Shown: in pieces, positions 605 to 15,023 of the stretch | Layout: each line of letters begins with the position of its first letter | Position numbering within the stretch: position 1 is the first letter of the stretch | NCBI GenBank assembly: GCA_045805065.1 | Contig: JBJMMA010000237.1 | Location: 1-16,174 of the forward strand | Direction of reading: 5' to 3' | DNA length: 16,174 nt | Source of the DNA: Bdellovibrionia bacterium | GTDB taxonomy: Bacteria > Bdellovibrionota > UBA1018 | Made by a program: the position numbers and the translations under genes | The notes under the pieces: generated by a model | What the model saw: the letters and a program-made list of their open reading frames with translations, nothing else | Databases searched by the model: none | What the model was told of the DNA's origin: nothing

Positions 605-663
605 TCAGCTTGCCTGATCAATGTGTGGTGATCAGCTTGCCTGATCACATGTAAAATGATCAG
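598..663. repeat. Intergenic 20-bp direct repeat GTGATCAGCTTGCCTGATCA (601-620, 628-647), self-complementary; possible bidirectional terminator
   Basis: Two identical 20-mers. Each folds as TGATCAG/CTGATCA with a 5-nt loop. Outer arms 598-608 and 641-651 are exact reverse complements. Five TGATCA hexamers start at 602, 615, 629, 642 and 657. Lies between convergent genes. Confidence 0.85.
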
Positions 664-1865
664 TTCGTTACCGTGCCGTTTGTAGCAGCAGGAACGACCT
701 GGACCGAATCCGTGCGAATCCAACCAGCGATCTCTTCGCCATTTTGTGAGGCGCTAGCCGATTGCGGAAGGACCTTAAACCAGCGATCGTTCCAATCCGT
801 GACGACGTACTTGGCTCTCTCGTCGGCATTGCCTACGACGGGATAAACCATTCCAGGGCCTGAACGAAGGTGGATGTTCTTTGCTTTGGGTTGAACGACC
901 AAAGGTGGATTGTCGCTCGAGAGCTGTACCGGGTGAGGAGCAGTCGGAGCAGGCATGCGCTCTGGAGCCATCGCCTGGCTTCGAACTTGATCCGAATATC
1001 CCGTATTAGGCTGAGCTTGTGCGACTTTGGCCACAGCAACAGGCGTAATCGGGTGAGACGTTTGCGCTACAGTGTCGCTCTCCTCGGCTCGTGCCGGGGC
1101 CTGGTGGCGATCGCTTAAAGTTGGGCGAGTCTTTTCGATGATCTCACCGCTTTGCATGAGCAGATAGAGGCCTGATCCCAGCGCAAAGGCCGCTGCAATG
1201 CCAATGGCCATCGGAAGAAGCCGGATTTTTCCAGCCGCTGCCGGAACTTCCGGAAGAGGCTCTGGGAAAAGCCCCATATTATTCACGCCATTCACGCCGT
1301 TCATGTAAGAAGGCATTGCGTTGCGGTCAACGCTTGCGCCTGCAGGCGCATTCGGGCCTGAGAGGGGACGTGCACCTGCTTCTTGTGACACTGGAGCAAA
1401 GGGTTGGGGATGAGAGATCTTGTCGAAAGGAAGATCCATCGCTGCAAGCGGATTTGAGCGATCTGTTTCAACGTGAGACGTATTGGCAGCGTGCAGGGGA
1501 TTGATCATTCCAGATGCCGTGTTTCGGCGGGTTGCGGGCTTAACAACCGGTTTGTCCGAATGAGCGGCAGGTGCTGCCGACATTGCGGCTGAAGACGCAG
1601 ATTGGGAAGCAGAAGTGCCTGCATTGTTCGTATAACGATTGAGAGTGCGGGTCGCTGCTTCGCTCAGAAGCGGATTTTCAGAAGATTCCGGAAGCAGGAC
1701 TTTTTCACCCGCCGGCGCGCGGTCCACTTTGATGATGTTGACTTCGGCCTTTCTGACGAGTGCGTATCCACCACATTGATAGCACCGAGAAAATGACCAG
1801 CTTGTGGTCATTTTATCATCAGCAATGCCTAAACTCACACCACAGTGCGGACAATTCCAACGCAT
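660..1865 (-). CDS. Bitopic membrane protein: N-terminal zinc ribbon (CPHC-x19-CYQC), disordered linker, one TM helix, periplasmic C-terminal bacterial SH3 (SH3b) domain
   Basis: Two CxxC pairs at the N-terminus; TM segment LLPMAIGIAAAFALGSGLYLLM; C-terminal NIHLRSGPG...WFKV...GWI SH3b pattern; RBS-like GGGAG before the ATG. Confidence 0.8.
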   Translation of the reverse strand: MRWNCPHCGVSLGIADDKMTTSWSFSRCYQCGGYALVRKAEVNIIKVDRAPAGEKVLLPESSENPLLSEAATRTLNRYTNNAGTSASQSASSAAMSAAPAAHSDKPVVKPATRRNTASGMINPLHAANTSHVETDRSNPLAAMDLPFDKISHPQPFAPVSQEAGARPLSGPNAPAGASVDRNAMPSYMNGVNGVNNMGLFPEPLPEVPAAAGKIRLLPMAIGIAAAFALGSGLYLLMQSGEIIEKTRPTLSDRHQAPARAEESDTVAQTSHPITPVAVAKVAQAQPNTGYSDQVRSQAMAPERMPAPTAPHPVQLSSDNPPLVVQPKAKNIHLRSGPGMVYPVVGNADERAKYVVTDWNDRWFKVLPQSASASQNGEEIAGWIRTDSVQVVPAATNGTVTN

Positions 1866-1910
1866 GGGAAGCTCCCTCTGCGTACTAGTTTTTCACAGCT
1901 GGGATTTCGG

Positions 1911-2705
1911 TCAATGGGCAGTAGTTGCCGCATCAGGAGCCGCGCCCACGGGCTCCGCCAAAGGCACTCCAGTGGCCTCAGGAGCGAGGATGCGAAGAAC
2001 GACGCGTCGGTTCTTTGACAATGCTTCCTCATCCCACTCTCCGGCGGGATTGCGGGAAGGGGCTTCCGGCCGGGTGTCGGCATAGCCGATGGCGGCAAGT
2101 TTTTGAGGCGAGAACCCGAGATCCAGAAACATTCGCACAACGCGCGAGGCACGCGCTCCGGAGAGTTCCCAGTTGGTGGGGAATGTGCCGCCTAAGATCG
2201 GTCTGCTATCGGTGTGACCCTCAACTATGATCCGGTACTCTCTCTTGTCGGCTTGTTGACGATTGGAGATCGTCGCGATGAGTTTATCAAGCACGACCTT
2301 GCCTTCGGGCTTCACGTCCGCCGAAAGGGTGTCAAAGAAGACGGTGGATTGAAACGTCACGCTCACGCCAGTGGCGTCCGTTTTGACGTTTGCAAGCTTT
2401 CCAAGCTGAGCATCGCTGATGACTTGAGTGATGAAGTTGGCGAGCTCCTGAACCTTGGGTTTTTCGTATTTTCCTTTGAACTGTGTGGCGAGCTCTTTCT
2501 TGGCTGACTCAAACTTGTTTTGGTCCACCGTAGAAAGCGCAAACATCATGATGAAAAACCCGCAAAGCAGGGTCATCATGTCGGCATAAGAAACCAGCCA
2601 GTTGGTCTCGTCGTGATGCTGAGTCTGATAAGGATTGGATTCCTTATGCCTCTTTGGCAGAGGAAACTCATGCTCCTTATTGTATTTGATCCTCTTCGTA
2701 TTCAC
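1911..2705 (-). CDS. motB: MotB/PomB-family stator subunit with OmpA-like peptidoglycan-binding domain
   Basis: TM WLVSYADMMTLLCGFFIMMF with the conserved Asp; C-terminal VEGHTD, NWELSGARA, GYADTRP and NRRV motifs; GTGA overlap with motA. Confidence 0.95.
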   Translation of the reverse strand: MNTKRIKYNKEHEFPLPKRHKESNPYQTQHHDETNWLVSYADMMTLLCGFFIMMFALSTVDQNKFESAKKELATQFKGKYEKPKVQELANFITQVISDAQLGKLANVKTDATGVSVTFQSTVFFDTLSADVKPEGKVVLDKLIATISNRQQADKREYRIIVEGHTDSRPILGGTFPTNWELSGARASRVVRMFLDLGFSPQKLAAIGYADTRPEAPSRNPAGEWDEEALSKNRRVVLRILAPEATGVPLAEPVGAAPDAATTAH

Positions 2706-3484
2706 GCAGCTTTTCTCACGACGCGTTCACGAGGCATGAGGAAGGAGTTGAGCCCTTCGCGCATTGCGATCGGATTGACCTGGGACTTGAGCATAAGCGT
2801 GCCTTCCACGATCATGCGCCGAAGAGTGAGCTCCTCATGTGAGCGCTCAGTCAGGTTCTCCGCGATGGGAAGGAAGATCAGGTTTGCCAGTGCAATCCCA
2901 TAGAGGGTTCCAATCAGACCGACGGACATGGCAGGTCCGATGAGCTTCTGACTATCGGCCTGGCCGACCTTCTGAAGGACACCGATCATGCCAAGCGTTG
3001 TGGCAAGAAGTCCGAAGGCTGGAGGAAAGCGGCCGATCGTGCGGAACATGTTGGCTTCGTACATGTAGCGCATTTCTATTGTCTTGATCCGTTGCTCCAG
3101 AGTGGTTCTGATCTCATGTTCATTGAGAACGCCTGCTGCAACGAGTGCGACGGCTTCACGAAGAAACGGATGCTGAATGGAGTTCAGTGACTCAGAAAGA
3201 GCGGACAGGCCCATGCTTGCGCGCTTGTTCAGCTCGAGAAGCTGCGTGATGGTTCCTTGATAATCGACCTTGTTCTGACCCAGTACTCGCAAAGCAAAAA
3301 CGCGGGTAAGCGCAATGAGATGCGAAAGCGGGTAGCTGATGCTTGCTGCGGCGGCGGTCCCGCCGCAAACGATGAGGATCCCGTGAAGATCGAGAAAGAC
3401 CTCCAGGTTATCCGTCGTGGAGGTGAGAGCAATGAACATCACGCTGATGCCAATGAATACGCCAAAGAAAGATGAGAAGTTCAT
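2702..3484 (-). CDS. motA: MotA/PomA-family stator subunit
   Basis: GILIVCGGT, PAFGLLATTLGMI, IGPAMSVGLIGTLYGIALANLIFLPIAENL and NP motifs typical of MotA/PomA; 260 aa; RBS AAGGAGG. Confidence 0.95.
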   Translation of the reverse strand: MNFSSFFGVFIGISVMFIALTSTTDNLEVFLDLHGILIVCGGTAAAASISYPLSHLIALTRVFALRVLGQNKVDYQGTITQLLELNKRASMGLSALSESLNSIQHPFLREAVALVAAGVLNEHEIRTTLEQRIKTIEMRYMYEANMFRTIGRFPPAFGLLATTLGMIGVLQKVGQADSQKLIGPAMSVGLIGTLYGIALANLIFLPIAENLTERSHEELTLRRMIVEGTLMLKSQVNPIAMREGLNSFLMPRERVVRKAA

Positions 3485-3485
3485 G

Positions 3486-3986
3486 TTAAGCGGCCTCCTT
3501 CTTCAGTGCGATCTTCCAAAGCTGGTATTGGCTGATCACGTAATTGTCATCCAGTTCACGAAGTCTTGCGACGAGGTGTTTCACGCAGCTTTCGTAAAAG
3601 CGCACCTTTGTGGCAGGTGAGTGATTCAACAAGGCTTGAAACGCTTCCTTGGAAACAAAAAAGAGGTCGCATTCCGTCAGGGCTTTAACGGTTGCGGAGC
3701 GCGGATTATTGTCCACCAACGACATTTCTCCAAAAAAACTGCCTTTGCGAAGTTGGCCGATGTCGTAGTTCTCGCCCGTAAGCTTGTTGGTCTTGAAGAT
3801 CCCCACCATGCCCTCAACGATCAGATACAAACCCCAGGAGAGCTCGCCTTCAATCACGATGTTGGAATGAGGCTCGTATTTGATCCATCGGCCGAGCTGA
3901 AGCACTTGGGTGAGCTCAGAATCCGTCAGAGGCTGAAGAAGCTTGATCTCTTTCAGGAGAGAGATGCTGGGCTTTTGCGTACTCAT
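3486..3986 (-). CDS. Stand-alone cyclic nucleotide-binding (CNB/CAP_ED) domain protein, no HTH
   Basis: IVIEGE, LYLIVEG and FFGEMSLVDNNPRSATV phosphate-binding cassette; 166 aa ending after a C-helix; ATGA overlap upstream and 1-nt gap to motA. Confidence 0.92.
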   Translation of the reverse strand: MSTQKPSISLLKEIKLLQPLTDSELTQVLQLGRWIKYEPHSNIVIEGELSWGLYLIVEGMVGIFKTNKLTGENYDIGQLRKGSFFGEMSLVDNNPRSATVKALTECDLFFVSKEAFQALLNHSPATKVRFYESCVKHLVARLRELDDNYVISQYQLWKIALKKEAA

Positions 3987-6409
3987 CCAGCCTCCCGTCT
4001 TGAGACGCCGTCCGGAGTAATGCTTCCAACGACGCCACCGGCTTGGATGTTGGTCGTCATATCGCCGTGTTGATCGGCGAACATGCGCTCATTGGTTTCG
4101 ACAAGATTGATCAGACCGTCGTTTGCCATGAGCTTCATTCGGTTCAAGATCTTGCGCTCGATCGCAAAGTAGGTCTCGCGGTTGACTTGCGGCGCATTTG
4201 CCACTTCGTCCTCAAGCTCGATTGCAAGCTCACGAGGGGACTTGGCGAAGATCGCGTCACGGACTGCAGGAGGCGCTGCCTTGAGGAACTGGATCAACTC
4301 ATCATGGCGCAGGCTGAGCACCACTTCAAGCAACTGACCATCGCGAAGATAGCGAAGCGTCTCGACGCTGACCAGCTTGCCTTTGACGTTGCGAGCACTG
4401 TCAGGACTTGATGACTCGAGGTTTTTCATGACGTCACGTTGCAAGCCCGTGCCCGTGCGCTCAAGCAGGCTGACCAGGACTTCAGAGCCAGGGAGCGCTT
4501 CAGTGTTGAGGCGAGGATTTTCACGGCGCTTGCGCTTGAGGGCGTTTGCGACGTTGAAGATGAAATCACGTGGCAAGTAATCGATGCGGCTGAGCTCGGC
4601 CAGCAGCTTCATGCGGATCTCTTCATCAAGATGTCCGTAAATCATGGAGCGCTTCTGAGCGTCGCATTGAGTGAGGATAATGGCTTTCACGGTAATAGAC
4701 TCATTGCGGATCATTTCGAGGATCTGCATCGCATCCATCTCAGCCAGGAAGTCAAAGAGGTTCGAGGAGCGGTTGCCGATCACGGCGAGTTTACCCGATA
4801 CTGTGCGCTGATGGAGCTTGCGGAGAAGATCCAGGCGCTCGACATCCTTCAGGTCAATCGTTGTGCGAGCGTAGTACTCCATGAGCTCGTTCATATCGCC
4901 CTGCAAGCTTGGGTCACGGAGCATGTCGATGACGATGCTCTCGCCAAAGATATGGAGATAGAGAGCGGTGATTTCAATTCCATCCTCGGTGATGACGCGC
5001 GTGAAGACATGCTTGGCAACACGTGGATGTTGGGAGAAGACCTGGACCAAGTCATCCGTCAGGCGTTGGATCTCAAGTCTGCGCGAGAGGGTGGTGGAGG
5101 TATCACTGGAACCCTCAGAAGAGCTTCCCATCTCATCGGATGCCGCTGACTTGTTAGATAAGCTTGAGGCGGCAGTCTGGCTTGGAGTATGCGTCACCAA
5201 AGCGTGGCGCTGACGCATGCTTGCGATCGCGATGAAGATCAGAAGAGAAAGGATCGAGCAGCCAAAGATCAGAGCGTAGACTTTGAAGTTCTGAAGCTCG
5301 GCATGAACGGCGTCGCCATTCTCGACGCGCTCAATTTTCTCATAGTGCTCAAAGCGCTCTTTTTTCGTGTCGTTTGAATTCGATGTGTTTGAGGCATTCG
5401 TCGCAGCCGTCGAATTGAGCTCGTTGGAGGAAGAATTATTGGCGTTCTCATTGTGCTGGCGCGACTCAACACTGCGGGAGTCACTGCTCTTGTTTTCCAT
5501 TTGTTCGCGGTTGAGCTTCTCGCTGGAGAGCCCGCGTTTTGCACCTGTGAATTCGCCCTCGTTATCGAGAGTTCCATAGCCAGGCACCGCGGAATTCATG
5601 GACGAGGGTTTTGGGAAGCGTAAGGTCTTCGAGTTCAGTGCGACGTGTTTGAATGAGCTCGTCTTGAGTTTGATCATCTCGACGATATTAGTGCGCTCTT
5701 CGGGGCTTAAGGACTCATCAATCAGGAGCGTGCCCCCGATTTCCTTGATCTTGATCGCGATATCGCCTTCCTGGACAAATTCACCTGGGGCAGCGTACTG
5801 GGCTTCCTCAGCGTTGACGGCTTCGGTTTTCAGATTGAAGTCCGTGAACAAGCACTGTTCCGGGCAGAACTGCTGGATCAGAGTGTTGACGGTGTTTTCA
5901 AAGTTCTTTGCGATGCGATCGCGAAGCTCCGCGACCTTGCCCTCGGATCCTGCTGGATCAGGGAAATGGACAACATCCATATCGACGGTGACAGGGTAGT
6001 CAAGCGTATCGAGATAGCGTTGGATGAGCTCGAGAAGCTTTCCGCGCGAGACGGCGCCAATCTTGTCGGCCATCAGAATCTTCATCTTTGCGGAAGTTGG
6101 CGCAAGAGAATCAGGTCCGACCGGAGGTGGTTCATCAAAGCCTGGTGCGATCGTTTCAGGGACGTTAAGATCGACTTGAACGGCAACAGACAGAAGCTTG
6201 CACTGGTCATGACAATACTTATCGAGAAGCGGTTCCACCAACCGGCGGATCTGGTTCTCAGTCGACTTTTGGACAGTCTCGCGAACCGTGCTTGCTCCAG
6301 GCAAGGTCGCTGCAAGAGAAGGGGTTGCCAAGGAGCCGCCGATCAGTCCAGCGAGCACGATCAGAGCTGATAATCTCATCATCAGAGCTCTTTTCATGAA
6401 ACTTCTCAT
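3983..6409 (-). CDS. Membrane-anchored FliG-domain protein; apparent FliF-FliG-like fusion (signal peptide, two periplasmic repeats, TM, FliF-tail-like helix, FliG N/M/C-like domains)
   Basis: aa 551-625 resemble FliG-M (FDFLAEMDAMQILEMIRNE...). aa 679-770 resemble FliG-C (LKAA...ELEDE...ERKILNRMKLMANDGLI). TM at aa ~376-397; N-terminal signal peptide. The FliG call is strong; the FliF-like call is inference. Confidence 0.85.
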   Translation of the reverse strand: MRSFMKRALMMRLSALIVLAGLIGGSLATPSLAATLPGASTVRETVQKSTENQIRRLVEPLLDKYCHDQCKLLSVAVQVDLNVPETIAPGFDEPPPVGPDSLAPTSAKMKILMADKIGAVSRGKLLELIQRYLDTLDYPVTVDMDVVHFPDPAGSEGKVAELRDRIAKNFENTVNTLIQQFCPEQCLFTDFNLKTEAVNAEEAQYAAPGEFVQEGDIAIKIKEIGGTLLIDESLSPEERTNIVEMIKLKTSSFKHVALNSKTLRFPKPSSMNSAVPGYGTLDNEGEFTGAKRGLSSEKLNREQMENKSSDSRSVESRQHNENANNSSSNELNSTAATNASNTSNSNDTKKERFEHYEKIERVENGDAVHAELQNFKVYALIFGCSILSLLIFIAIASMRQRHALVTHTPSQTAASSLSNKSAASDEMGSSSEGSSDTSTTLSRRLEIQRLTDDLVQVFSQHPRVAKHVFTRVITEDGIEITALYLHIFGESIVIDMLRDPSLQGDMNELMEYYARTTIDLKDVERLDLLRKLHQRTVSGKLAVIGNRSSNLFDFLAEMDAMQILEMIRNESITVKAIILTQCDAQKRSMIYGHLDEEIRMKLLAELSRIDYLPRDFIFNVANALKRKRRENPRLNTEALPGSEVLVSLLERTGTGLQRDVMKNLESSSPDSARNVKGKLVSVETLRYLRDGQLLEVVLSLRHDELIQFLKAAPPAVRDAIFAKSPRELAIELEDEVANAPQVNRETYFAIERKILNRMKLMANDGLINLVETNERMFADQHGDMTTNIQAGGVVGSITPDGVSRREAG

Positions 6410-7212
6410 GGCGTCACCTCCGCCTGGCTCTCACCAGAGCTAGAGGGCGATGCTGCAGGAATGCGTCCGCCGCGTCGCTCGATGAAGCGACGAAGAGTTT
6501 GATCTCCTGGATTGAACCGAAGTGCTTGTCCCCAGGACTTCAAGGCAAGATCTCTGCGACCTACGCGATCCAGAAGCGTGCCCTTCATCTCATGAAGTTT
6601 CGGATCGGTTGGGAAATCGTGGATCATGGAGTCCACTTCAATCAGGCCGGCCTCATAGCGACCCATGCGATAGAGTTGCTTGATGTGATCCATGGATGCC
6701 AGATAGCTCTTCTGGCGTTCAGGGGTCATTTCTTCGGATTGAACCAGGCCCAGACCTTTTTCGATATCGCTTCTCTTTTGCTCATCTTCAAAAGGCGCTT
6801 GGGAGAACTTTCTTGTCAGCTCGCGGTCGGTCCTGGTCGGAGCCAGGTTTGCGTAAGCGTTTTCAGCAGCGGGTACAGCAGAGTCATCTGCCGCCGAGGC
6901 TGGAGCGCGCGAAGCTGATCCGCCTGAGACAGGGAGCACGAAATCGGTAACTCCTTGGTTTGCGCGGGAGAGCTCAACCTCAACTGCCTTGTTTCCGTTT
7001 TTGGAGCGGAAGATCATCGTGTCCGCTGGATCTGCGTTATTTGCCAAAGTTGGCTCATAATCGCCGAAAGGATTGGAGATCGGTTTGTTTTCCTCTTTTG
7101 AGGTGTCGGCGGCAAAAATGCCACGAACGCTTGAGCAGGCGACGCACGAGAGCGACGCGAGAGCCAGGGCTCCTGCGATTCTCATCGTGTTTTTTCTCGT
7201 CGTCCGTTTCAC
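6406..7212 (-). CDS. Lipoprotein with C-terminal TPR repeats
   Basis: Basic N-terminus, hydrophobic stretch and lipobox (CVAC); TPR-like helices YRMGRYEAGL...PKLHEMKGTLLDRVGRRDLALKSWGQALRFNP; GTG start with AAGGAG RBS; ATGA overlap with the next gene. Confidence 0.85.
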   Translation of the reverse strand: MKRTTRKNTMRIAGALALASLSCVACSSVRGIFAADTSKEENKPISNPFGDYEPTLANNADPADTMIFRSKNGNKAVEVELSRANQGVTDFVLPVSGGSASRAPASAADDSAVPAAENAYANLAPTRTDRELTRKFSQAPFEDEQKRSDIEKGLGLVQSEEMTPERQKSYLASMDHIKQLYRMGRYEAGLIEVDSMIHDFPTDPKLHEMKGTLLDRVGRRDLALKSWGQALRFNPGDQTLRRFIERRGGRIPAASPSSSGESQAEVTP

Positions 7213-7224
7213 GTTCTCATCTCC

Positions 7225-8334
7225 TTAGAATAAAATGTGGATTCCTAAGCCTGCTTCAACTCCGCCCACTTCGCCTGCCGGATTGCTCGAAATAAATGCC
7301 GTGGATTTCGGGCGATATCCAAGAGTTGGCGAAACCGCATAGCTCTTGCCCAGGCGCCATTCGTACTGGGCGCGGAGCAGGCCGCCTAAAAATCCTGAGG
7401 CGTAAGTTCCACCCAGGCCAAGCATGAAGCTTCCACGAGGATGGTTATAGTTCTCTTCATCACCGATGAAGTTCCAGCCATGGACAAACAAAAGAGTCGC
7501 GTTGACGCCCGAGTAAAGGTCCACGGTGGAGCTGGTTGATCCTACGATGCTTGAGGCGTTCTTTAGGACATCGATCTCAAATCCCACTTCTTTGTGGCGA
7601 TTGTCGTAGCGCTCGACGGCGCGGAAGCCGATGCCTGCAGCGCCAGTACGTTCGCCCACATTTGGCTCAGAAAGATAAAGCACTCCCAGGCGATATTGAA
7701 TCGTCGGGACATACTCTGCCTGCTTGCGGGAGTCATCAATCTGGCTGTAATCGACGCCGCGGCGGGCAGCCGAGGTGCGCGAGTTTTCAGAATTATAAGT
7801 TCTGCTCCAGATGATCGTTCCTTGCTCGGGATCCGTAATATGGAGAGAGAGAAGCATTCCCGAAGATTGATAGGCGAATGAAACGTCCATGAAATGAAGG
7901 ATGCCGTTCTCTTTGGCGATCCTGGATAATTCAACTGGGTTTGAGTCAGGTGAGCTCACGACGACCTTATCGCCGCTGAGCTGCGTGCGCTTGGAGCGGC
8001 ACTGCAGACACTGAATCACGCGAGTCTTGCTGGTCTTCAAAATACGCTCACTCACCAGAAGCTCAAGATGGCTTCGGAATGAAGGAGGCACGTTCTCGCT
8101 CATGGCGATGTTGCGCACAGAAAGATCTTTGAGGCCTTGAACGTTTCCGTTCTTTAGGTCGTATTCAAAATCAGAAAGCACATCTTCGAGCACTTCGTAG
8201 AAGTTTCTGGTCTTTGAATCGCTGTCGGCGGCTTTCGCGACAGAAGGGTGAACGCCCGCCACAAGTGCCAGCCCTACGGCCAAAGCCGCGCTGATGCTGA
8301 GATTTTTAAATGTCCTGTTCAATAGACGTCGCAC
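7225..8334 (-). CDS. Exported protein: N-terminal alpha/beta domain with CxxC (possibly CsgG/TolB-N/FlgO-like) plus probable C-terminal outer-membrane beta-barrel
   Basis: Signal peptide ending AKA; CLQC; LSLHITDPEQGTIIWSRTY pattern; C-terminal alternating Gly/aromatic strands ending GLGIHILF (terminal Phe, BAM-type signal). GTG at 8334 is preferred over 8352 because AAGGAG lies 6 nt upstream and the putative promoter position fits. Confidence 0.7.
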   Translation of the reverse strand: MRRLLNRTFKNLSISAALAVGLALVAGVHPSVAKAADSDSKTRNFYEVLEDVLSDFEYDLKNGNVQGLKDLSVRNIAMSENVPPSFRSHLELLVSERILKTSKTRVIQCLQCRSKRTQLSGDKVVVSSPDSNPVELSRIAKENGILHFMDVSFAYQSSGMLLSLHITDPEQGTIIWSRTYNSENSRTSAARRGVDYSQIDDSRKQAEYVPTIQYRLGVLYLSEPNVGERTGAAGIGFRAVERYDNRHKEVGFEIDVLKNASSIVGSTSSTVDLYSGVNATLLFVHGWNFIGDEENYNHPRGSFMLGLGGTYASGFLGGLLRAQYEWRLGKSYAVSPTLGYRPKSTAFISSNPAGEVGGVEAGLGIHILF

Positions 8335-8356
8335 TTGAGGCTCCTTCCTCACTTGC

Positions 8357-8383
8357 TCTTCGGAGTTTCACCGCAGGGCTTGA
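8357..8383 (-). promoter_or_regulatory. Putative sigma28 (FliA)-type promoter for the motor-like operon
   Basis: Minus strand TCAA-N15-TCCGAAGA versus consensus TAAA-N15-GCCGATAA, just upstream of the RBS of the first gene. Confidence 0.55.
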
Positions 8384-8443: not shown

Positions 8444-8471
8444 TCACGCTCTGGGAACTATTTGCCGAGAA
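8444..8471 (+). promoter_or_regulatory. Possible sigma28-type promoter for the divergent lipoprotein
   Basis: TCAC-N16-GCCGAGAA. The -10 box matches 7/8, but the -35 is weak and the site is very close to the ATG. Confidence 0.35.
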
Positions 8472-8480
8472 AAAGGGGAG

Positions 8481-9575
8481 ATGAAAGCGAGTCTTCGTCA
8501 TAGAATTGGGTCCGTCAAGTGGCTGACGCTGATGCTTGGAGCCGGGGGTGCCTGGCTTGGAGTCGCAGGGTGCAGCACAACGAACACCCTTTCTCCGCAT
8601 GAACCAGCGAAAGAAGTCGCGTTGCCAGCGTACGCTTATCTGCCGCATCCGGCAGGGCATACAACGGGCGATGTCATCAGCCTTTTTACTGAGAGGGGTG
8701 CGCCCTCGCGCGTGACTATGGCCAAGTGCGAGGATGAATTCCGCACGCTTTACTCCAAGGCGCAAAGTATCGAAGAGCGCACAAAAGGCGTTCGGGAACT
8801 AGTGAGTCGCAATCCTGCAGCCTATCATTGGTGTTTCTATTCTCAGATCCTTGGTCTTGAGGAAGGGCTGAGTCAGGATGAGTTTGTTGATCAGAAGCAA
8901 AAACGCGTCATGACGACCTACGAGTATCTCGTCCCGGTTGCTCGCGCTTTCATGAAAGAGTTCCAGGATTCCCGCTATCTCAGATGGGCCATTCAGGACT
9001 ATCGGCGCCTTGCGGATCTGTATTTCTATCGCAAGCTCGAGATGTCGCCCCATATGAGCAGCGAACTGGTGGATGTTGCCGTTCCGGTGGACGAGCGTTC
9101 GTCAGCTCGCAATGAGGGCGCTGCCCAAGATGCGAAAAAGATGAGCGTACTCGAGAAGTATAAGATCGGAAACGCTCTTCCTGAATCCTCCGTCCTTGTT
9201 CAAGCGAAACAGCAGGCAGATGATGAGAGCGCAGCAATTCCAAAGAAGGCCGAGTTGCCACCTCCTGTTGTCGAAGCCGTGGCTGAGAAGAAAGAAGAGC
9301 CAGCTGAGCCTGCAGTTACGGATCCGGATGTTCAAGACACGATTCAGACTGCGATGGAGCTTGCTCGCCAACGCAAGGAAACGGCGACTCAAAACCGGGC
9401 TCCTGCCGGGAAGGTCGAGTCGGCCCCTGCTATGATACCAGCTCAAGCTCTAGTGCCTGCACCGGCGGTTGTTCCAGTTGCTGCTCCAGTTACAGCCCCG
9501 GTTGCTGCCCCGGCTCCAAAAGTTGTCTCACCGGTGACAGAGCCTCCCAAAGAAGAACTTCCTGCAATCGAGTGA
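8481..9575 (+). CDS. Hypothetical lipoprotein with helical core and Pro/Ala/Glu-rich C-terminal tail
   Basis: ATG at 8481 after a purine-rich stretch; lipobox VAGC; helical domain with two Cys (AKCEDEF, YHWCFY); low-complexity PAPAVVPVAAP tail. Confidence 0.75.
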   Translation: MKASLRHRIGSVKWLTLMLGAGGAWLGVAGCSTTNTLSPHEPAKEVALPAYAYLPHPAGHTTGDVISLFTERGAPSRVTMAKCEDEFRTLYSKAQSIEERTKGVRELVSRNPAAYHWCFYSQILGLEEGLSQDEFVDQKQKRVMTTYEYLVPVARAFMKEFQDSRYLRWAIQDYRRLADLYFYRKLEMSPHMSSELVDVAVPVDERSSARNEGAAQDAKKMSVLEKYKIGNALPESSVLVQAKQQADDESAAIPKKAELPPPVVEAVAEKKEEPAEPAVTDPDVQDTIQTAMELARQRKETATQNRAPAGKVESAPAMIPAQALVPAPAVVPVAAPVTAPVAAPAPKVVSPVTEPPKEELPAIE

Positions 9576-9653: not shown

Positions 9654-11501
9654 TTAGAACTGATCAGGGTTATAGCCGCGGTTGCGCAGCTCGCGTTTGA
9701 CGCCCTCGAGCAAGGACTGAATTCGGGATCTTTCGCGAACGTAATCGATATTCACAAGCCCTGCGGGTTTGCTCTCGAGAATTTTATCGAGCGTTTTGAG
9801 CTCCTGCATCTGGTTGACATAGGCGGAAGACGCATTCGTTGCAGCGATAGGGCGCCTCGTGACCAGTGATACTTCAGTACCCCGTTCGTTATTCAGGACA
9901 GAGCGTGAAGGACCTGCTTCTGCCTGAGCCCTCAAGGCCTGGAAATTTTCGTTCAGGGCCTCATTGGCATTTCTGAAGCCACTTGCTTCAAAGTCAGTTT
10001 TGGCATTCTCCACGAACATTTTTGCAGCACCTTCAGTGTCACCCGCACGGATTCTCATGCCGAGAAGCGCTTCGCGGTCCCGCTGGGAGGCCAGCATATC
10101 GGGCGCGTTTTTTAATACACGGTCATACTGCGAAAGCGCATCCTTGGTCAAAGCCTGGCCTGAAGTCAGATCGCCCACGGAAGCTGCCGATTCCCCTGCG
10201 ACTCGGTTTGCTTCAGCAAGGCCACGGACGTTGCGAAGGTACTCGCGCTTCTCGGCGGCGGTCATTGAGGAGAAGCGATACCCCTGGCTGTCCACTTCCC
10301 GAAGGAGTCGGTCTCTTAAATCAAATACTTTGAGTCGAGACTCCTGCTCGTATTTTGGGAGTATCTTGAAAGTTTTTGTCTGGGACATCGATGCTCTGAT
10401 TCCGGCTGAATCGGCAGACGATCCTGCAATCCCGTTTCTCATCAGAATGGCACGCTCGCGGGAAGTGAAACCTGCGCGTCTTAAAATGCGCGCCTTGTCG
10501 CGAAGCTGTTCCGGGGTGTAAGTCATGAAACCTGCACCGGTGTCTTTACCCACTTCGTGGGCAGCAATGAGCGCATCTTTTTCTGCCTTCGAAAGAGTTC
10601 TGCCTAAAAGAAATTCGGCCACACCTTTTCGATCAGCGTTGGACAACCCGCCAGCCGTGGGCATGATTGCGTCTCCAGCCTTGGCAAGCTTGCTGGCTGC
10701 AGCCTCGACCTGAACTGATTTGGACAACTCGACAAGGCGATTCAAGCGAGCCACGCGGAAAGCTGCAATTGCTGGTCCGGCCGCCGTGAGGGCTGCGACC
10801 GTGCCGGCTTCACAGTACATCTCTGCCAGAGCCTCGGTATTGTAGCACTCGCGTTTGACTTTCAGCTCATCCAGAAGCTTTCCTGCCGCTGCCTTTAGAT
10901 CAACAGTTTTCTTGAGATCCCGTTTCACTGGATTGATTTCTTTTGAGACGTCAGCGGCGCTTTTCTCAGTCATTCTTTGCGTGACGTTGTAAGCCTTGGT
11001 GTTGAACTCCTTGAGGAGGTCCGAGCAGGACATTCTTTCAAGACTTTGCGTGGGCGGGGTCTTGAAGCTCTCACCGGGGGGAAGCGCATCGTTGAACTGG
11101 TCGATCATATCGAGTTTTTGCTCGATATCCGAATTACAGGTCGAAGAATGGGTTGCGAATGCGTAAATGCCTTTTAGAACATCCCAAATAGCTTTGCCTG
11201 TGGCATTCCACGCTCCCAGGCTGCATCCTTTCGTGCGTGCGATGGCTGCATCCAATGATGTTCGCTCACAGAAGCTCTTCATGTCGCAGGAGTAGAGCTT
11301 CTCCGAGTCTTTGATATCAGCGCAGGCCGCGGCGCGTGTTACTTCGCATCCTTTTTCGAGAACGCCGTTCGAATGGTTACTGAGTGTCGAAGCTGCACAG
11401 CTTTTCTCGGAGAAACAGGGGCTATCCGATGAATACGACTGGGGAACGTTACTTAGAATGGCAAGTACTGCGACTGTGAAAAACCTGTAGGCTTTCTGCA
11501 C
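9654..11501 (-). CDS. Secreted hypothetical protein, Cys-rich N-terminal part and Cys-free helical C-terminal part
   Basis: 615-aa ORF; GTG start with GAGGGGG RBS; signal peptide; 11 Cys in aa 29-230 and none afterwards; hydrophobic segment at aa ~232-250. Confidence 0.8.
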   Translation of the reverse strand: MQKAYRFFTVAVLAILSNVPQSYSSDSPCFSEKSCAASTLSNHSNGVLEKGCEVTRAAACADIKDSEKLYSCDMKSFCERTSLDAAIARTKGCSLGAWNATGKAIWDVLKGIYAFATHSSTCNSDIEQKLDMIDQFNDALPPGESFKTPPTQSLERMSCSDLLKEFNTKAYNVTQRMTEKSAADVSKEINPVKRDLKKTVDLKAAAGKLLDELKVKRECYNTEALAEMYCEAGTVAALTAAGPAIAAFRVARLNRLVELSKSVQVEAAASKLAKAGDAIMPTAGGLSNADRKGVAEFLLGRTLSKAEKDALIAAHEVGKDTGAGFMTYTPEQLRDKARILRRAGFTSRERAILMRNGIAGSSADSAGIRASMSQTKTFKILPKYEQESRLKVFDLRDRLLREVDSQGYRFSSMTAAEKREYLRNVRGLAEANRVAGESAASVGDLTSGQALTKDALSQYDRVLKNAPDMLASQRDREALLGMRIRAGDTEGAAKMFVENAKTDFEASGFRNANEALNENFQALRAQAEAGPSRSVLNNERGTEVSLVTRRPIAATNASSAYVNQMQELKTLDKILESKPAGLVNIDYVRERSRIQSLLEGVKRELRNRGYNPDQF

Positions 11502-11532
11502 GCGGATTCCCCCTCAATTGTCTCTAGAAGAA

Positions 11533-11559
11533 GTATCGGAATATTTACTGATTTTATTA
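11533..11559 (-). promoter_or_regulatory. Putative sigma28-type promoter of the 615-aa secreted protein gene
   Basis: Minus strand TAAT-N15-TCCGATAC, upstream of the RBS. Confidence 0.55.
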
Positions 11560-11592
11560 AATGCAGACCTTTACGTCAGTGCCCGGCCCGAC

Positions 11593-11609
11593 TGTCTAAG
11601 GTTTAGACA
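11593..11609. promoter_or_regulatory. Perfect 7-bp inverted repeat TGTCTAA-N3-TTAGACA; candidate transcription-factor or enhancer site
   Basis: Dyad in a divergent intergenic region, about 50 bp upstream of a sigma54-like -24/-12 element. Confidence 0.5.
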
Positions 11610-11659
11610 CTCTGAAGTCCTGCGGAGCGCTTTATCTGGGGCAGGACCGGTAGGATCTC

Positions 11660-11675
11660 TGGCATGTGCACTGCA
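11660..11675 (+). promoter_or_regulatory. Putative sigma54 (-24/-12) promoter
   Basis: TGGCATGTGCACTGCA gives GG-N10-GC, close to TGGCAC-N5-TTGCA; followed by an AGGAG RBS and ATG at 11701. Confidence 0.6.
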
Positions 11676-11700
11676 GTCTTATGTGGCCAGGAGACTGAGT

Positions 11701-12141
11701 ATGAGTTCAAAAACGCTTTCCTTGTCAGCCATGATTTTGGTGCTTCTTGGAGCCGGTGTTGCGGATGCAGCGGTCAAGGTTCAGTGCAAAGGAATGGTTC
11801 AGGACGTGAACTATTGTTTAGATGATATGTGTTCAGATAACGCATCTTTGGTTTTGAAAGATTTTGATCGCCCATATTCGATGGATTTTCGGTTTTCAGG
11901 CGAAGCGAATTCGAAATTAAATACTAAAGACTACGATTATAAAGAGCACTACGAATTCATTCTTTCTAAAATCGAAGGTTCCACAGTTCTTGAGTTAGAA
12001 GTTCGCGCCAAAAGCAGTGTCGGCCATCCAAATCTTAAAATTGGGGTAATACGTGGCCAGAAATTTCGTTTCGATTACAAGACCCCAGTTGACACTTATA
12101 ATTACACCAATCATGTCTTGAAGTGCGAGCTGAGTGAATAG
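11701..12141 (+). CDS. Small secreted hypothetical protein (AT-rich gene)
   Basis: ATG at 11701 with AGGAG RBS; signal peptide ending ADA; four Cys; visibly AT-richer than the flanks. Confidence 0.7.
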   Translation: MSSKTLSLSAMILVLLGAGVADAAVKVQCKGMVQDVNYCLDDMCSDNASLVLKDFDRPYSMDFRFSGEANSKLNTKDYDYKEHYEFILSKIEGSTVLELEVRAKSSVGHPNLKIGVIRGQKFRFDYKTPVDTYNYTNHVLKCELSE

Positions 12142-12166
12142 TTCAATCCTCTCAAGGTCAAAGTAT

Positions 12167-12874
12167 ATGAATACCAAAGTTATGGCGCTGGGGCTGATGA
12201 TCTCAACAGCATTCGTCTCAGCATGTTTTGCTCAAGATAGTTCGTGCACTTCTAAAAAGGCGCGCTTAAATGGCGAGACCGTCGTGCTGGACGAGAAATG
12301 CATGCTGAGCTTCCCAGGCTATGGGAACAATCATTTTGGCAGATCCTATATCGATCAGGTGGGAGAGCTCTTCGTTTTTGCTCAGGTGGCAGAGACGGGC
12401 GTTGATTCCAAGGACTATGGATCTCGGACCTATTTTTTGCTCCCGGTTCGTCAGACGTCAGACTTTGAAGTGAATGAGTCGACAGGCGAGCTTGTGATCC
12501 ATCATTCTTCTGGCGAGACCATGACGCTTGCTCCGGACTTCAAGGTCAAGTCTTTCACAGGCGTTGAGTTTGTCGAGGCCGAGAAAAGCAGTGACGCCAA
12601 TAAGGGCGGCTTTGAGATCAAGAAATACAGCAACGGGATTCTTCTCGATACGGGCTGGACGCATTCTGCAATCACGATCAAGGCGGAAGGACAATCCACT
12701 TTCATGGATCGCACTGGAAAGACGTGCGTGGTGAAAAACAAAGAGATCTTTGATTTTTCGGGTGAGTATGCCGAGAACGCTAATTTCAAATATCCGGGTA
12801 GCAAAGAGCTTCAAGTTTATCTGAAGAAGCGCTGCCCGAAGCTGGATCTATCTCCGCTTCAATCCCAAAAGTAA
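12167..12874 (+). CDS. Secreted hypothetical beta-rich protein
   Basis: ATG at 12167 begins a signal peptide (MNTKVMALGLMISTAFVSACFA); paired Cys near both ends; no recognised family. Confidence 0.75.
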   Translation: MNTKVMALGLMISTAFVSACFAQDSSCTSKKARLNGETVVLDEKCMLSFPGYGNNHFGRSYIDQVGELFVFAQVAETGVDSKDYGSRTYFLLPVRQTSDFEVNESTGELVIHHSSGETMTLAPDFKVKSFTGVEFVEAEKSSDANKGGFEIKKYSNGILLDTGWTHSAITIKAEGQSTFMDRTGKTCVVKNKEIFDFSGEYAENANFKYPGSKELQVYLKKRCPKLDLSPLQSQK

Positions 12875-12895
12875 AACCCTCAGAAAGAAAGTAGT

Positions 12896-13345
12896 ATGAA
12901 GAAATCCCATTTGTTTTTCCTGGTGCTGGCTCCCGTTCTATTCACGCTGACATCTTTTGCGAGAGCAGAGGACTCCTCAGCGGAGAAATCCTCATGCCAT
13001 TGCATTTTCAATGGGACAAAAGATTATCAGCTCTATGATGAGACCAAGAACTATTTCGGCAAACGCAAGGTTCATCGCAAGTGGACTTGCGAGTACACCT
13101 GTCATGTGGGATCGCTTACAGAAACCGTCAAGGGGAGTTACGATCTGGTCAATCGCGGCGATGATGACGGGCGTGAAGGAATCTGCGAAGGCACGGTCTA
13201 CGAATCCCAGTTCAACCAATTCGTGATGCGCGAAGTTTACACTTATAAGTCGAGCGAGACCTTCAATCCGAAAAAAGCGAAGGCCTCCGAGCTCAAGCAA
13301 TGGGCCGAGAGTCAGAACTGCGATAGAGGATCGATTTTCGACTAA
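12896..13345 (+). CDS. Small secreted Cys-rich hypothetical protein
   Basis: Signal peptide ending ARA; six Cys (CHC, CEYTC, GIC, QNC). Confidence 0.75.
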   Translation: MKKSHLFFLVLAPVLFTLTSFARAEDSSAEKSSCHCIFNGTKDYQLYDETKNYFGKRKVHRKWTCEYTCHVGSLTETVKGSYDLVNRGDDDGREGICEGTVYESQFNQFVMREVYTYKSSETFNPKKAKASELKQWAESQNCDRGSIFD

Positions 13346-13656: not shown

Positions 13657-14976
13657 TCAGGCAGCCTTGTCGTTTTGTTCGCCTGCTGCCTTAAGTTCTG
13701 CGGTTCGCTCGAAATACTTCTCCAACACGCGAATGCGGAACTCAGTTACAGGGTGTCCCAATGAGATGAGCATCGATCCAGGATCACGCTTTTGAGGAAG
13801 ATTCGGGGAGCTCATGCGATCGAGTTTTCTCAACGCCGAGGACAGATCAGAAAGAGTCGCGCCCAAGTGTTCAATGGCGTGAATGTCGGCAGCAAACTCC
13901 TGATACCTGACGAGTTTTGCTAAAAGCCTGAACGCGAACACGAAAGAAATCAGAAGCGAGCTAAAGCCCACCATCGTCTGGCCCTGCTGCGAGACGCCCA
14001 TAAAGCGTGAGCAGAGTACGGAGAATCCTGTCATCAGAGCCGCGCATAAGATCAGTCCTGCAGAGAAAGTGAATCGTTTTTTCAAATGCTGAAGCTTCCA
14101 GTGGCTGATCTCATGAAGCACGACGGATTTGAATTCACCTTCGGTCAACTTGTTTACGAGTCCACTTGAGATGAAAAATCCTGGCTTGAAAAGACCACGA
14201 CCGTTTGGGAATCCGGCCATCATCGCACTTGCTTGGGCGCTTCCTTGGGCACTCCCTTGGGCACCGCTTGGAGCTCCCCCGGATTGGGTTTCGTGCGTGT
14301 CGATCAACCAGAACTCAGGCATAGGAGCCTTTGCGGAGGTGAAGAGCTCAGTCAGGGACTGACGAAGCTCGCCTTCGGGGGCAGCCTGGGCGTTCAAGAT
14401 CTTGCGGACAAAGAGGGCGCCAAGCGCAAAGCTTATGCAAAGTCCTCCGACGACCCCGACACCCATTCCAATAAGAACGAGTCCGAGCTTCACACCCATC
14501 GGCGCTTGAGACAGAACTCCGATCAGCGAAAAAGCAAAAACGGAGGTCAGAATCGAGGCCACGTAAGTCAGGCCTGCAAGCAGCGACCAGAAGAAAGTTC
14601 GGATAGCCTGCCAGTAAAAAGAGCCGCCGTTTTTCTCAAGATCCGCTCCAGCTACTTTTCCCTCCAGGTTTCGTTGGAGAGCAAGTTGGAGCAAAAAAGC
14701 AGTGAGAAAGAGGGGATAGGCAATGGCTGGATGTTCGCGCCGGATGGGCGTGGATCCAAAGAAAATCAGGATTTCGACGAGATTGATGAAGAATCCAGCC
14801 GTTCTGATGCGATAAAGCTCATCGGCGCGGTTCACTTCCTCGCGTTCGTCCAGCTTGGCTTGAAAGAAGCGCTCGAAGTAGTCGCACCAGAGGGCAAAAG
14901 CCGCAATTGGAATGGCAGTGAGGATCATAAGACCTGCCAGATTCATGACGCCCTGCTGTGCTAGTTCTTCATTCAT
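13657..14976 (-). CDS. M48-family (HtpX/Ste24-like) integral membrane zinc metalloprotease
   Basis: HEISH (HExxH), EFAAD third-ligand motif, HP...RI motif, multiple TM helices. Start placed at ATG 14976 so that it avoids overlap with meaB and lies downstream of the sigma28-like promoter. Confidence 0.88.
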   Translation of the reverse strand: MNEELAQQGVMNLAGLMILTAIPIAAFALWCDYFERFFQAKLDEREEVNRADELYRIRTAGFFINLVEILIFFGSTPIRREHPAIAYPLFLTAFLLQLALQRNLEGKVAGADLEKNGGSFYWQAIRTFFWSLLAGLTYVASILTSVFAFSLIGVLSQAPMGVKLGLVLIGMGVGVVGGLCISFALGALFVRKILNAQAAPEGELRQSLTELFTSAKAPMPEFWLIDTHETQSGGAPSGAQGSAQGSAQASAMMAGFPNGRGLFKPGFFISSGLVNKLTEGEFKSVVLHEISHWKLQHLKKRFTFSAGLILCAALMTGFSVLCSRFMGVSQQGQTMVGFSSLLISFVFAFRLLAKLVRYQEFAADIHAIEHLGATLSDLSSALRKLDRMSSPNLPQKRDPGSMLISLGHPVTEFRIRVLEKYFERTAELKAAGEQNDKAA

Positions 14977-14995
14977 AGACTCGACCCCGAACTCT

Positions 14996-15023
14996 TTATC
15001 GGGTATGAGTGGACTTATCTTTA
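14996..15023 (-). promoter_or_regulatory. Putative sigma28-type promoter of the M48 peptidase gene
   Basis: Minus strand TAAA-N16-CCCGATAA, near consensus; its -35 box touches the divergent meaB ATG. Confidence 0.65.

Follow-up and report, generated by a model that had tools for sequence, protein, structure and literature searches.

A candidate rotor-stator unit of the cell envelope, separate from the flagellar basal body, encoded by a seven-gene operon of a Bdellovibrionia bacterium

To our knowledge, the torque interface between MotA and FliG is known from flagella only, and the other 5:2 motors (Ton, Tol, Agl, Gld, Zorya) are coupled to their partners otherwise. Here, we describe an operon of seven genes from a Bdellovibrionia bacterium (GenBank assembly GCA_045805065.1, contig JBJMMA010000237.1), which encodes a flagellar-type MotA/MotB stator together with a fusion of FliF-like and FliG parts in a single polypeptide, an outer-membrane barrel protein, a lipoprotein and two further proteins. 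We lean, if only slightly, towards the view that this operon specifies a rotor-stator unit of the envelope that is driven by ions and stands alone, i.e., does not belong to the basal body of the flagellum. The window that was analysed is the entire contig of 16,174 bases (C237 in our numbering) of a 4.2-Mb genome estimated as 94% complete.

The closest described system is the flagellar motor's core, made up of the FliF ring, FliG and the MotA5B2/PomAB stator. The module shares with it the whole FliG fold with N, M and C parts, a FliG_C domain resembling the stator-bound one, periplasmic domains predicted to resemble the ring-building motifs (RBM) of FliF, a MotA that aligns end to end with MotA and PomA, and a MotB with plug, channel Asp and OmpA-like domain. 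Unlike the flagellar core, it joins the FliF-like and FliG parts in one chain, has one or two RBM-like domains without a FliF sequence match, adds an outer-membrane barrel and a tetratricopeptide repeat (TPR) lipoprotein, and does not keep the FliM-contact and hinge motifs. Engineered FliF-FliG fusions of Salmonella and Vibrio assemble into rings (available passages of PMC10941966 and PMC11481574). They likewise form one chain, but are laboratory versions of full-length flagellar proteins residing inside the flagellum, whereas the fusion of the module is natural, shortened, diverged and provided with its own stator. As for other extra FliG-like proteins, the FlgY/FlbB/MotE proteins of the E-ring are anchored in the membrane near the motor and encircle the membrane-supramembrane (MS) ring with a FliG/MgtE-like armadillo (ARM) head located in the periplasm (PMC13023049, in the part available). 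These proteins and the spirochaete FliG paralogues are also additional FliG/MgtE-like proteins of the ARM-repeat type; the module has instead a full, cytoplasmic FliG. With Tol-Pal, ExbBD-TonB, AglRQS-Glt, GldLM and Zorya, in turn, the module has in common an ion-driven A5B2-type motor encoded with an inner-membrane transducer and periplasmic or outer-membrane partners, TPR proteins and barrels among them. In contrast to these systems, its motor belongs to the flagellar branch (plug and OmpA-like domain, MotA with four transmembrane helices) and the partner of this motor is a cytoplasmic FliG domain.

A 2025 survey of MotAB evolution treats flagellar-type stators as one flagellar group (PMC12505986, in the sections accessible). 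In the open literature that we searched, we found no description of the cassette and only the engineered FliF-FliG fusions. New are the two-domain form with a cyclic-nucleotide-binding protein in a flagellated lineage, its FliA-type promoter, the presence of three gene orders in one phylum and the strict co-occurrence counts.

The fusion protein and its stator

All seven open reading frames (ORFs) of the operon are co-oriented on the minus strand and are named here g1 (7225–8352), g2 (6406–7212), g3 (3983–6409), g4 (3486–3986), g5 (2702–3484), g6 (1911–2705) and g7 (660–1865); from g1 to g7, they are separated by 12, −4, −4, 1, −4 and 45 nt. A preliminary description of this stretch, made from its letters, had listed seven co-oriented genes with these gaps, which agrees exactly with the ORF coordinates, and had assigned to them an outer-membrane-barrel-like protein, a TPR lipoprotein, a membrane-anchored FliG protein, a protein binding cyclic nucleotide monophosphates (cNMP), MotA, MotB and a Zn-ribbon/SH3b protein. 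These assignments are borne out by the matches given below, except that the TPR part of g2 has the standing of a lead and the SH3b part of g7 corresponds to a weak match below the cut-off. The same description had seen no separate flagellar cluster genes at the locus, and Pfam searches with the 15 ORFs of the window likewise detected no flagellar gene (rod, export gate, FliM/FliN, hook or filament).

The g3 product, a protein of 808 aa, is the central component of the module. Pfam recognizes in it FliG_M (PF14841, residues 562–631, E 1.4e-8, 35.3 bits against a cut-off of 25) and FliG_C (PF01706, residues 663–769, E 8e-12, 45.8 bits against 23.3), while its score with the flagellar switch equivalog TIGR00207 (54.7 bits) stays below the cut-off of 226.7. 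In the AlphaFold2 (AF2) model, based on 50 homologues (pLDDT confidence score 77), an N-terminal hydrophobic helix (signal peptide, around residues 6–25) is followed by two alpha-beta-beta-alpha-beta domains (39–147 and 155–263), a disordered linker, a long membrane helix (around 364–399), a second disordered stretch and an all-helical part (436–781), within which the full FliG fold spans approximately residues 475–781. Foldseek searches with g3 returned full-length FliG (3hjl, E 4.5e-7) and the FliF MS-ring chain 7bk0_B (E 2.3e-5; FliF rings in general 2e-5 to 5e-4). By VIA-align, residues 475–775 superimpose on residues 4–327 of FliG (8wiw, 8umx) with Z 14, i.e., over the whole N, M and C fold, and residues 681–768 on the FliG_C bound to MotAB (8ucs_H) with Z 11.6 and a root-mean-square deviation (rmsd) of 2.1 Å over 88 residues. 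The first periplasmic domain (36–150) finds its best match in FliF RBM3 (Z 10–11.4, rmsd 2.6–3.0 over 96–99 residues), and residues 39–266 align with FliF 125–438 at Z 9.8. The 'single-polypeptide rotor' of the preliminary description thus holds at the level of fold: FliF-RBM-like domains, a membrane helix and all parts of FliG are predicted in one chain. The start of g3 may lie 27 nt further in, as the called protein P0001 has 799 aa.

Each of the two periplasmic domains of g3 carries an invariant CxxxC motif (Cys 66/70 and 182/186). The N-terminal region is basic and is followed by a cleavage-like site (SLA-A), and basic residues also follow the membrane helix. Taken together with the CxxxC pairs on the predicted periplasmic side, these features place the FliG part in the cytoplasm, on the same side as the MotA loop. 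Across 50 sequences, the charged positions of the FliG_C helix region (K710, K723, E731, E733, E735, R744 and E745) either do not vary or are conserved to 90% or more. When g3 is aligned by HMMER with the FliG protein of T. maritima, the position of EHPQ(R) reads NESI/L and that of MFXF reads LVS(V/I), so neither motif is kept. We take EHPQ/EHPQR to be the FliM-contact motif and MFXF to be the hinge of FliG; the ordinary contacts of the switch complex therefore appear to be lost.

As for the stator, g5 (260 aa) matches Pfam MotA_ExbB (E 3e-20) and g6 matches MotB_plug (E 1e-18) and OmpA (E 7e-14). The g5 protein aligns end to end with the solved MotA of a stator-FliG complex (8ucs_C, E 1e-34) and with PomA (8brd, E 2e-27). 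Both subunits have the hallmarks of a flagellar-type stator, i.e., a MotA with four transmembrane helices and a large cytoplasmic loop, and a MotB with a plug, the channel Asp and an OmpA-like peptidoglycan-binding domain. Neither reaches an NCBIfam equivalog cut-off: g5 scores best with MotP (147 against 394 bits), resembling MotP/MotA/PomA over its full length, and g6 is closest, also over its full length, to MotD (152.9 against 283 bits) and MotS. In 21 orthologues, K87, K/R88 and E/D98 of the cytoplasmic loop of g5 are conserved, as are PP154–155 and P207 with the two transmembrane prolines, and the channel Asp of g6, which lies in a SYAD(M/L/I)MTLL segment, never varies. What such residues do is known from work on E. 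coli and Vibrio. A maximum-likelihood tree of 44 MotA sequences places the 21 operon-linked ones in a single clade (support 99/99, recovered in 100% of bootstrap trees), nested among the PomA-like stators of the phylum and far from the ExbB-like protein of the same genome. In this tree, g5 groups with PomA-like stators and not with the ExbB/TolQ type; Pfam finds no TonB/TolA family match in g3. Stators of complete Bdellovibrio-like genomes (family f20) fall outside the clade, so that none of the three motAB pairs of B. bacteriovorus, about which the preliminary description had asked, is orthologous to that of the operon.

Apart from the operon, the genome carries a fliF gene adjacent to a 338-aa fliG on contig C184, fliM on C251, seven flagellin genes and one hook-associated homologue. 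It also encodes three MotB-plug proteins: g6 and those on contigs C165 and C83. With separate fliF, fliG and fliM, seven flagellins and two more MotB-plug stators present, the operon represents a paralogous system, and the possibility that g3 is the only FliG/FliF equivalent of the genome, which the preliminary description had raised against its own proposal, is settled by the canonical pair on C184. A third, weak FliG_C match (33 bits) is found on contig C105 (18974–19237, locus L003) in an open frame of 151 aa. This small ORF could encode an E-ring (FlgY/FlbB-type) or MgtE-like protein, and similar ones occur in genomes G057, G293 and G106.

Distribution and variant forms

We examined 301 genomes of the phylum, including that of the window (G000), 60 others of the same order and 240 outside the order. 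Full-length g3 was found in 45 of the 60 but was missing from all 240, and strong matches to the g1 profile in 46 of the same 60. Orthologous MotA (58–95% identity) is encoded by 44 of the 45 genomes holding the fusion; in the remaining one, the contig ends at the fusion. None of the 255 non-holders has a MotA that is at least 58% identical, and the next best MotA anywhere reaches 44% at most. In sequence clusters, proteins related to g3 amount to more than 120 of about 800 aa (48–90% identity), and the names, where given, are Bdellovibrionota/Oligoflexia or 'FliG'. Homologues are also carried by the magnetotactic Bdellovibrionota FG-1/FG-2 of the class UBA1018 (P0106, 51% identical to g3, and P0123, related to g1), a class that probably includes the window's genome as well. 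Magnetotactic cells of this class are vibrioid; they bear a single polar flagellum, which is unusually thick, and their anterior pole is pointed (PMC13200544, according to the text available).

Of 20 loci from 20 genomes, searched for homologues of ten window proteins only, all 20 have the genes for g1, g2, g3, MotA and MotB in one conserved order. The accompanying genes are more variable: g4 is present in 16 loci, g7 in 14 (mostly recognized by its N-terminal motif) and a divergently oriented lipoprotein gene in 18. The co-occurrence of the genes that the preliminary description had expected is thus borne out for the core of the module.

A profile of the periplasmic part of g3 retrieved only 167 proteins (E 0.001 or better) from 1.84 billion representatives. 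Among 28 of these that were sampled, 25 have FliG-type matches (FliG_C, FliG_M or MgtE_N-like, some below the cut-off in Pfam) and three have no family, two of them being short fragments; the FliF family was detected in none of the 28. Besides the full form (form A), the size classes among the 167 include proteins of 540–620 aa with one periplasmic domain and proteins extended at the N-terminus to about 970 aa. Rearranged modules with shorter fusions were found in three families other than that of the window. In form B, the gene order is g1-g2-MotA-MotB-short fusion, as found in genomes G071 (family f18) and G055 (family f25). The short fusion retains the signal peptide, a single membrane helix and FliG, as well as the motifs CxxxC and PGF; with hhalign, the proteins of G071 match the families of the window at 99.5% (E 2e-22), 99.7% (g2, E 3e-27) and 98.7% (E 4.5e-16). 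In form C, found in G106 of the sister order, a g1-like protein and a short TPR protein are encoded together with a membrane-anchored FliG-like protein of 413 aa, which has no periplasmic domain, and with MotA and MotB. The stators of forms B and C cluster together.

The two genomes with form B are relevant for the relation of the module to the flagellum. Searches of G071 (91% complete) and G055 (89% complete) for FliF, FlhA and flagellin gave no match, which in draft genomes does not prove absence, and the only FliG_C match in both is the fusion of the module itself. In three control genomes searched in parallel, matches to FliF and flagellin were clear, and a chance loss of all four markers is unlikely. 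The module in a variant form is thus present in genomes without matches to flagellar markers, a point that had been left to be checked.

Two side observations concern related loci. At a form-B locus (L119), a methylmalonyl-CoA mutase gene adjoins the module; the parallel with a MeaB gene in the window (see below) is probably a coincidence. One holder, in turn, carries a second, diverged set (L120, contig C83 of G248, 2567–6120) in which a FliG fusion of 686 aa is accompanied by a barrel protein and a TPR protein, on a 9-kb contig without MotA/MotB. A second copy resembling g1 is likewise present in G008, G296 and G227.

Envelope partners, regulator and promoter

The g1 gene most likely starts at the GTG at position 8334, behind a ribosome site GGAAGGAG, which yields a protein of 369 aa, equal in length to the called protein P0121; the residue numbers given here for its domains count from the start at 8352. 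Its AF2 model (45 sequences, pLDDT 79) consists of a signal peptide, a periplasmic alpha/beta domain (approximately 51–213) and an 8-stranded barrel (215–375) ending with a C-terminal Phe. In a VIA wide search, the barrel resembles OprF (4rlc, Z 15.1), NspA (Z 14.2), OmpW (Z 14.0) and also OmpA (Z 14–15), and the N-terminal domain the C-domain of LpoB (4q6l, Z 9.6). We found 293 relatives of g1 in a set of 5.8 billion sequences, and the names given to them are Bdellovibrionota or Oligoflexia, with the exception of one labelled Methylotenera by NCBI and Oligoflexia by nr. Neither g1 nor g2 belongs to a Pfam family, and g1 has no NCBIfam family either. In g2, the lipobox Cys is nearly invariant among 21 orthologues and several short motifs are conserved (PIxNPFG, a RTKKGDRSVEVE-like strand and RREIExGLGL); feature hits to TPR clusters in the ESM Atlas (0.96–0.99) are a lead to a TPR domain in its C-terminal part. 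A predicted complex of the periplasmic domain of g1, the periplasmic part of g3 and mature g2, with g2 as the partner, reached values of 0.29 and 0.30, just under the 0.32 set as the mark, in runs made without controls.

Two further products of the operon accompany this core. The g4 gene encodes a stand-alone protein of 166 aa (Pfam cNMP_binding, E 4e-20), the translation of which includes an FGE...RSA cassette, i.e., a canonical-looking phosphate-binding cassette, and which is a candidate regulator. The g7 protein, an accessory component, has an N-terminal CxxC...CxxC zinc-ribbon-like motif, a low-complexity region and one membrane helix at around 219–237 by hydropathy; its C-terminus is weakly SH3b-like (SH3_3, E 0.005, 17.5 bits against a cut-off of 27).

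Upstream of g1, on the minus strand, we identified TCAAG, a 15-nt spacer and CCGAAG at 8358–8383 by regular expression, 8 nt ahead of the strong ribosome site; its upstream end coincides with the end coordinate 8383 that the preliminary description gave to the operon. This candidate promoter matches the FliA (sigma-28) form, in which a TAAAG-like −35 box and a CCGATA-like −10 box are 15–16 nt apart. A loose version of the pattern occurs in 20 of 21 orthologous upstream regions, in 17 of them at 8–13 nt before the Shine-Dalgarno sequence, against a background of 191 of 5418 windows of 260 nt (3.5%). With a matrix built from the orthologous upstream regions, the site of the window ranks first in the genome (22.7 bits), and sites of at least 18 bits number 43 in the genome and 15 in the reversed sequence. 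A first, strict regular expression matched 1 of the 7 flagellin upstream regions; by the matrix, 2 of the 7 flagellin genes, on C171 and C143, score at least 18 bits, and the C171 promoter (TTAAG-N15-CCGAAG) is very close to that of the operon. No sigma-54 pattern was found upstream of g1 (0 of 21 regions), and sigma-70 and terminator scans did not exceed the shuffled expectation. In two closely related genomes (loci L064 and L065), the promoter spacer upstream of g1 holds a run of eight G, which is possibly a slipped-strand site that could vary the spacer length.

In B. bacteriovorus, the FliA consensus is TTAAG-N16-CCGATA, 92 of 140 attack-phase promoters are of this type, and FliA drives many, if not most, of the non-flagellar genes of this phase (PMC3627812, in the portion available). 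Since FliA drives so many non-flagellar genes, the promoter marks expression in the motile programme rather than membership in the flagellum. Yet, tying expression to the motile programme, it also keeps alive a role linked to the flagellum in the flagellated lineage. Of the 20 top matrix sites that were annotated, 3 are probably intragenic false hits (Hsp70, RecQ and alanine racemase) and 7 precede genes without a Pfam family. Genes downstream of matrix sites encode a GAF protein, a pair of PilZ proteins (one of which shares its contig with the C165 stator), a PilT-like ATPase, a cNMP-binding protein of 368 aa that is paralogous to g4 (on C245), RelA/SpoT and an MscS-like channel. The signalling genes among them hint at a broad FliA regulon, as in B. 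bacteriovorus.

The closest neighbor of the operon is the divergent lipoprotein gene (8478–9575, plus strand), which may be part of the system and is a candidate eighth member. In its product, Pfam and NCBIfam detect no family, and ESM Atlas matches reach at most 0.81 and are uninformative. A sigma-28-like −10 box tried for this gene (GCCGAGA, 8464–8470) lies only 7 nt before the ATG, and the strict pattern occurs in 6 of 17 regions, so this promoter is not established. Further away, the window encodes a secreted protein of 615 aa (9654–11501, minus strand) without a Pfam or NCBIfam family, which is syntenic with the operon in 0 of 20 related loci. It is followed by three consecutive small exported Cys-containing proteins with no family (11518–13345, plus strand; G+C 0.47 against about 0.54) and, at 13657–15970, by an M48 peptidase with an N-terminal multi-pass membrane part (minus strand) and a MeaB GTPase (plus strand). 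In the window, no family of Rfam attains its gathering score. Among sequencing runs, four of soil-metagenome DNA, all from a single study, share 0.20–0.25 of the words of this stretch, and no RNA run was among the matches listed.

A rotor-stator unit and its alternatives

The preliminary description had proposed that the operon encodes its own stator, rotor and envelope parts, i.e., a minimal machine, and the folds, the paralogy and the co-inheritance described above support this proposal; the roles that it named as possible, gliding, prey invasion or secretion, are hypothetical. A dedicated, conserved stator is always inherited with a membrane-anchored full FliG, which includes the C-terminal domain against which MotA pushes in flagella, and the simplest account is that the stator acts on that FliG. 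The RBM-type domains suggest a ring, and the partners at the outer membrane point either to a stator positioned from the outer envelope or to work that is delivered there.

Several points weigh against a stand-alone rotor-stator unit. It is we who infer ring formation, rotation, the contacts and the output of the module, and the RBM identity of the g3 domains is a matter of predicted fold: the Pfam YscJ_FliF model (PF01514) does not match g3, hhalign of the periplasmic profile against FliF of the same genome gives a probability of 2.9%, and a profile search of the Protein Data Bank sequences with the periplasmic part was empty. The fold in question is small and common, and the C-terminal domains of cation-efflux proteins, which are unrelated, score just as high (MamB, Z 10.0). 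In the HMMER alignments, the charged residues of MotA and of the FliG-like helix of g3 are offset by 1–2 positions relative to the solved proteins. The lack of a periplasmic domain in form C means that a periplasmic ring is not essential to the whole family, and a single clade for the stators of forms A, B and C is unsupported, form A joining B and C in 0 of 200 bootstrap trees, where the branches are too long to settle their relation. Finally, all 45 checked holders of the full-length fusion come from a flagellated lineage, and the promoter is of the type read by the flagellar sigma factor.

The last two points lead to the alternative that survives best, although we consider it unlikely, namely that the module assists the flagellar motor, to which it would add a further membrane ring and a scaffold for the stators, as needed by a thick polar flagellum of high torque; the H/T rings and the PflA/PflB scaffolds of other polar motors would be comparable. 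FlgO, FlgP and FlgT are linked to the outer membrane. The close similarity in form to the C171 flagellin promoter and the single, unusually thick polar flagellum of relatives in the class UBA1018 (available text of PMC13200544) would fit this role, and TPR-built motor scaffolds or stator partners exist, e.g., MotC and MotK (PMC13023049, in the passages accessible). Yet, the promoter does not discriminate, as most non-flagellar attack-phase genes of B. bacteriovorus depend on FliA too (PMC3627812, portion as above). Moreover, form B occurs in two genomes without matches to FliF, FlhA, flagellin or canonical FliG, whereas 15 of the 60 genomes of the same order lack the fusion and still match canonical FliG. 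The fliF/fliG and fliM genes of the window's own genome lie on other contigs, with no flagellar gene beside the operon in the window, and a module that supplies a stator along with FliF-like and FliG parts of its own is more than a scaffold.

We regard as rather improbable a function without a rotor, in which the FliG-like protein would dock or sequester a special stator and serve in signalling as an ion-flow or load sensor, or else keep stators in reserve, with a cyclic nucleotide tuning the module. The fact that in 16 of 20 loci the cNMP-binding gene separates the rotor gene from those of the stator, the reduction of form C to a membrane anchor and FliG, and the apparent loss of the switch contacts (NESI and LVSV in place of the FliM-binding and hinge motifs) agree with such a role, and mutations in stator genes alter the lifestyle of B. 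bacteriovorus (PMC11323537, in the part available). However, the barrel protein and the TPR lipoprotein, which a purely cytoplasmic sensor would not need, are co-inherited in every form, and both the ion-conduction residues of the stator and the charges of the FliG-like helix are conserved. Least probable, and in our view quite improbable, is a transducer that works linearly or by pulling, in the manner of TonB, TolA or the Agl-Glt gliding system, with single fusions passing the force of MotAB to g2 and g1 at the outer membrane without a turning ring: the layout is the same as in Tol-Pal, Ton and Agl-Glt (5:2-type motor, inner-membrane transducer with a periplasmic part, TPR protein, outer-membrane barrel) and the periplasmic domain of g1 is LpoB-like, but the A subunit is of the flagellar and not the ExbB/TolQ type, coupling through a cytoplasmic FliG domain is unprecedented in those systems, and RBM-type domains are mainly known as ring builders.

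Returning to the stand-alone rotor-stator unit, its operation could be pictured as follows. MotB would anchor the stator to peptidoglycan, and with the ion flow the MotA ring would turn against the FliG-like domain of g3. Through its RBM-like domains, g3 would oligomerize into a small turning ring in the inner membrane, devoid of rod, export apparatus and FliM/FliN, while g1 and g2 would position the stator or receive the output at the outer membrane. The cNMP-binding protein g4 might be a brake or clutch, and the FliA-type promoter would place the machine in a motile, attack-phase-like programme. Tentatively, one may go further and imagine a free-standing, rod-less rotary nanomachine, possible though not what we would expect first, whose fusion ring is spun by its own stators, is coupled to the outer membrane and works on the envelope in the motile or attack phase, e.g., at the pole that contacts the prey. 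The flagellar torque interface would thereby have a second use, and such a nanomachine may have descended from the flagellar motor core or may be a relic of a stage before the flagellum.

A module having only a stator, FliG and a FliF-like anchor, present in genomes without matches to flagellar markers, would imply that rod, export gate and switch are dispensable for the working, or the reuse, of the rotor-stator core. Torque generation could then be studied in a simple system provided by nature, and the question of how the flagellar motor arose would gain a new data point. For the predatory Bdellovibrionota, it would add a candidate envelope machine, probably expressed, judging from its promoter, together with the motile programme.

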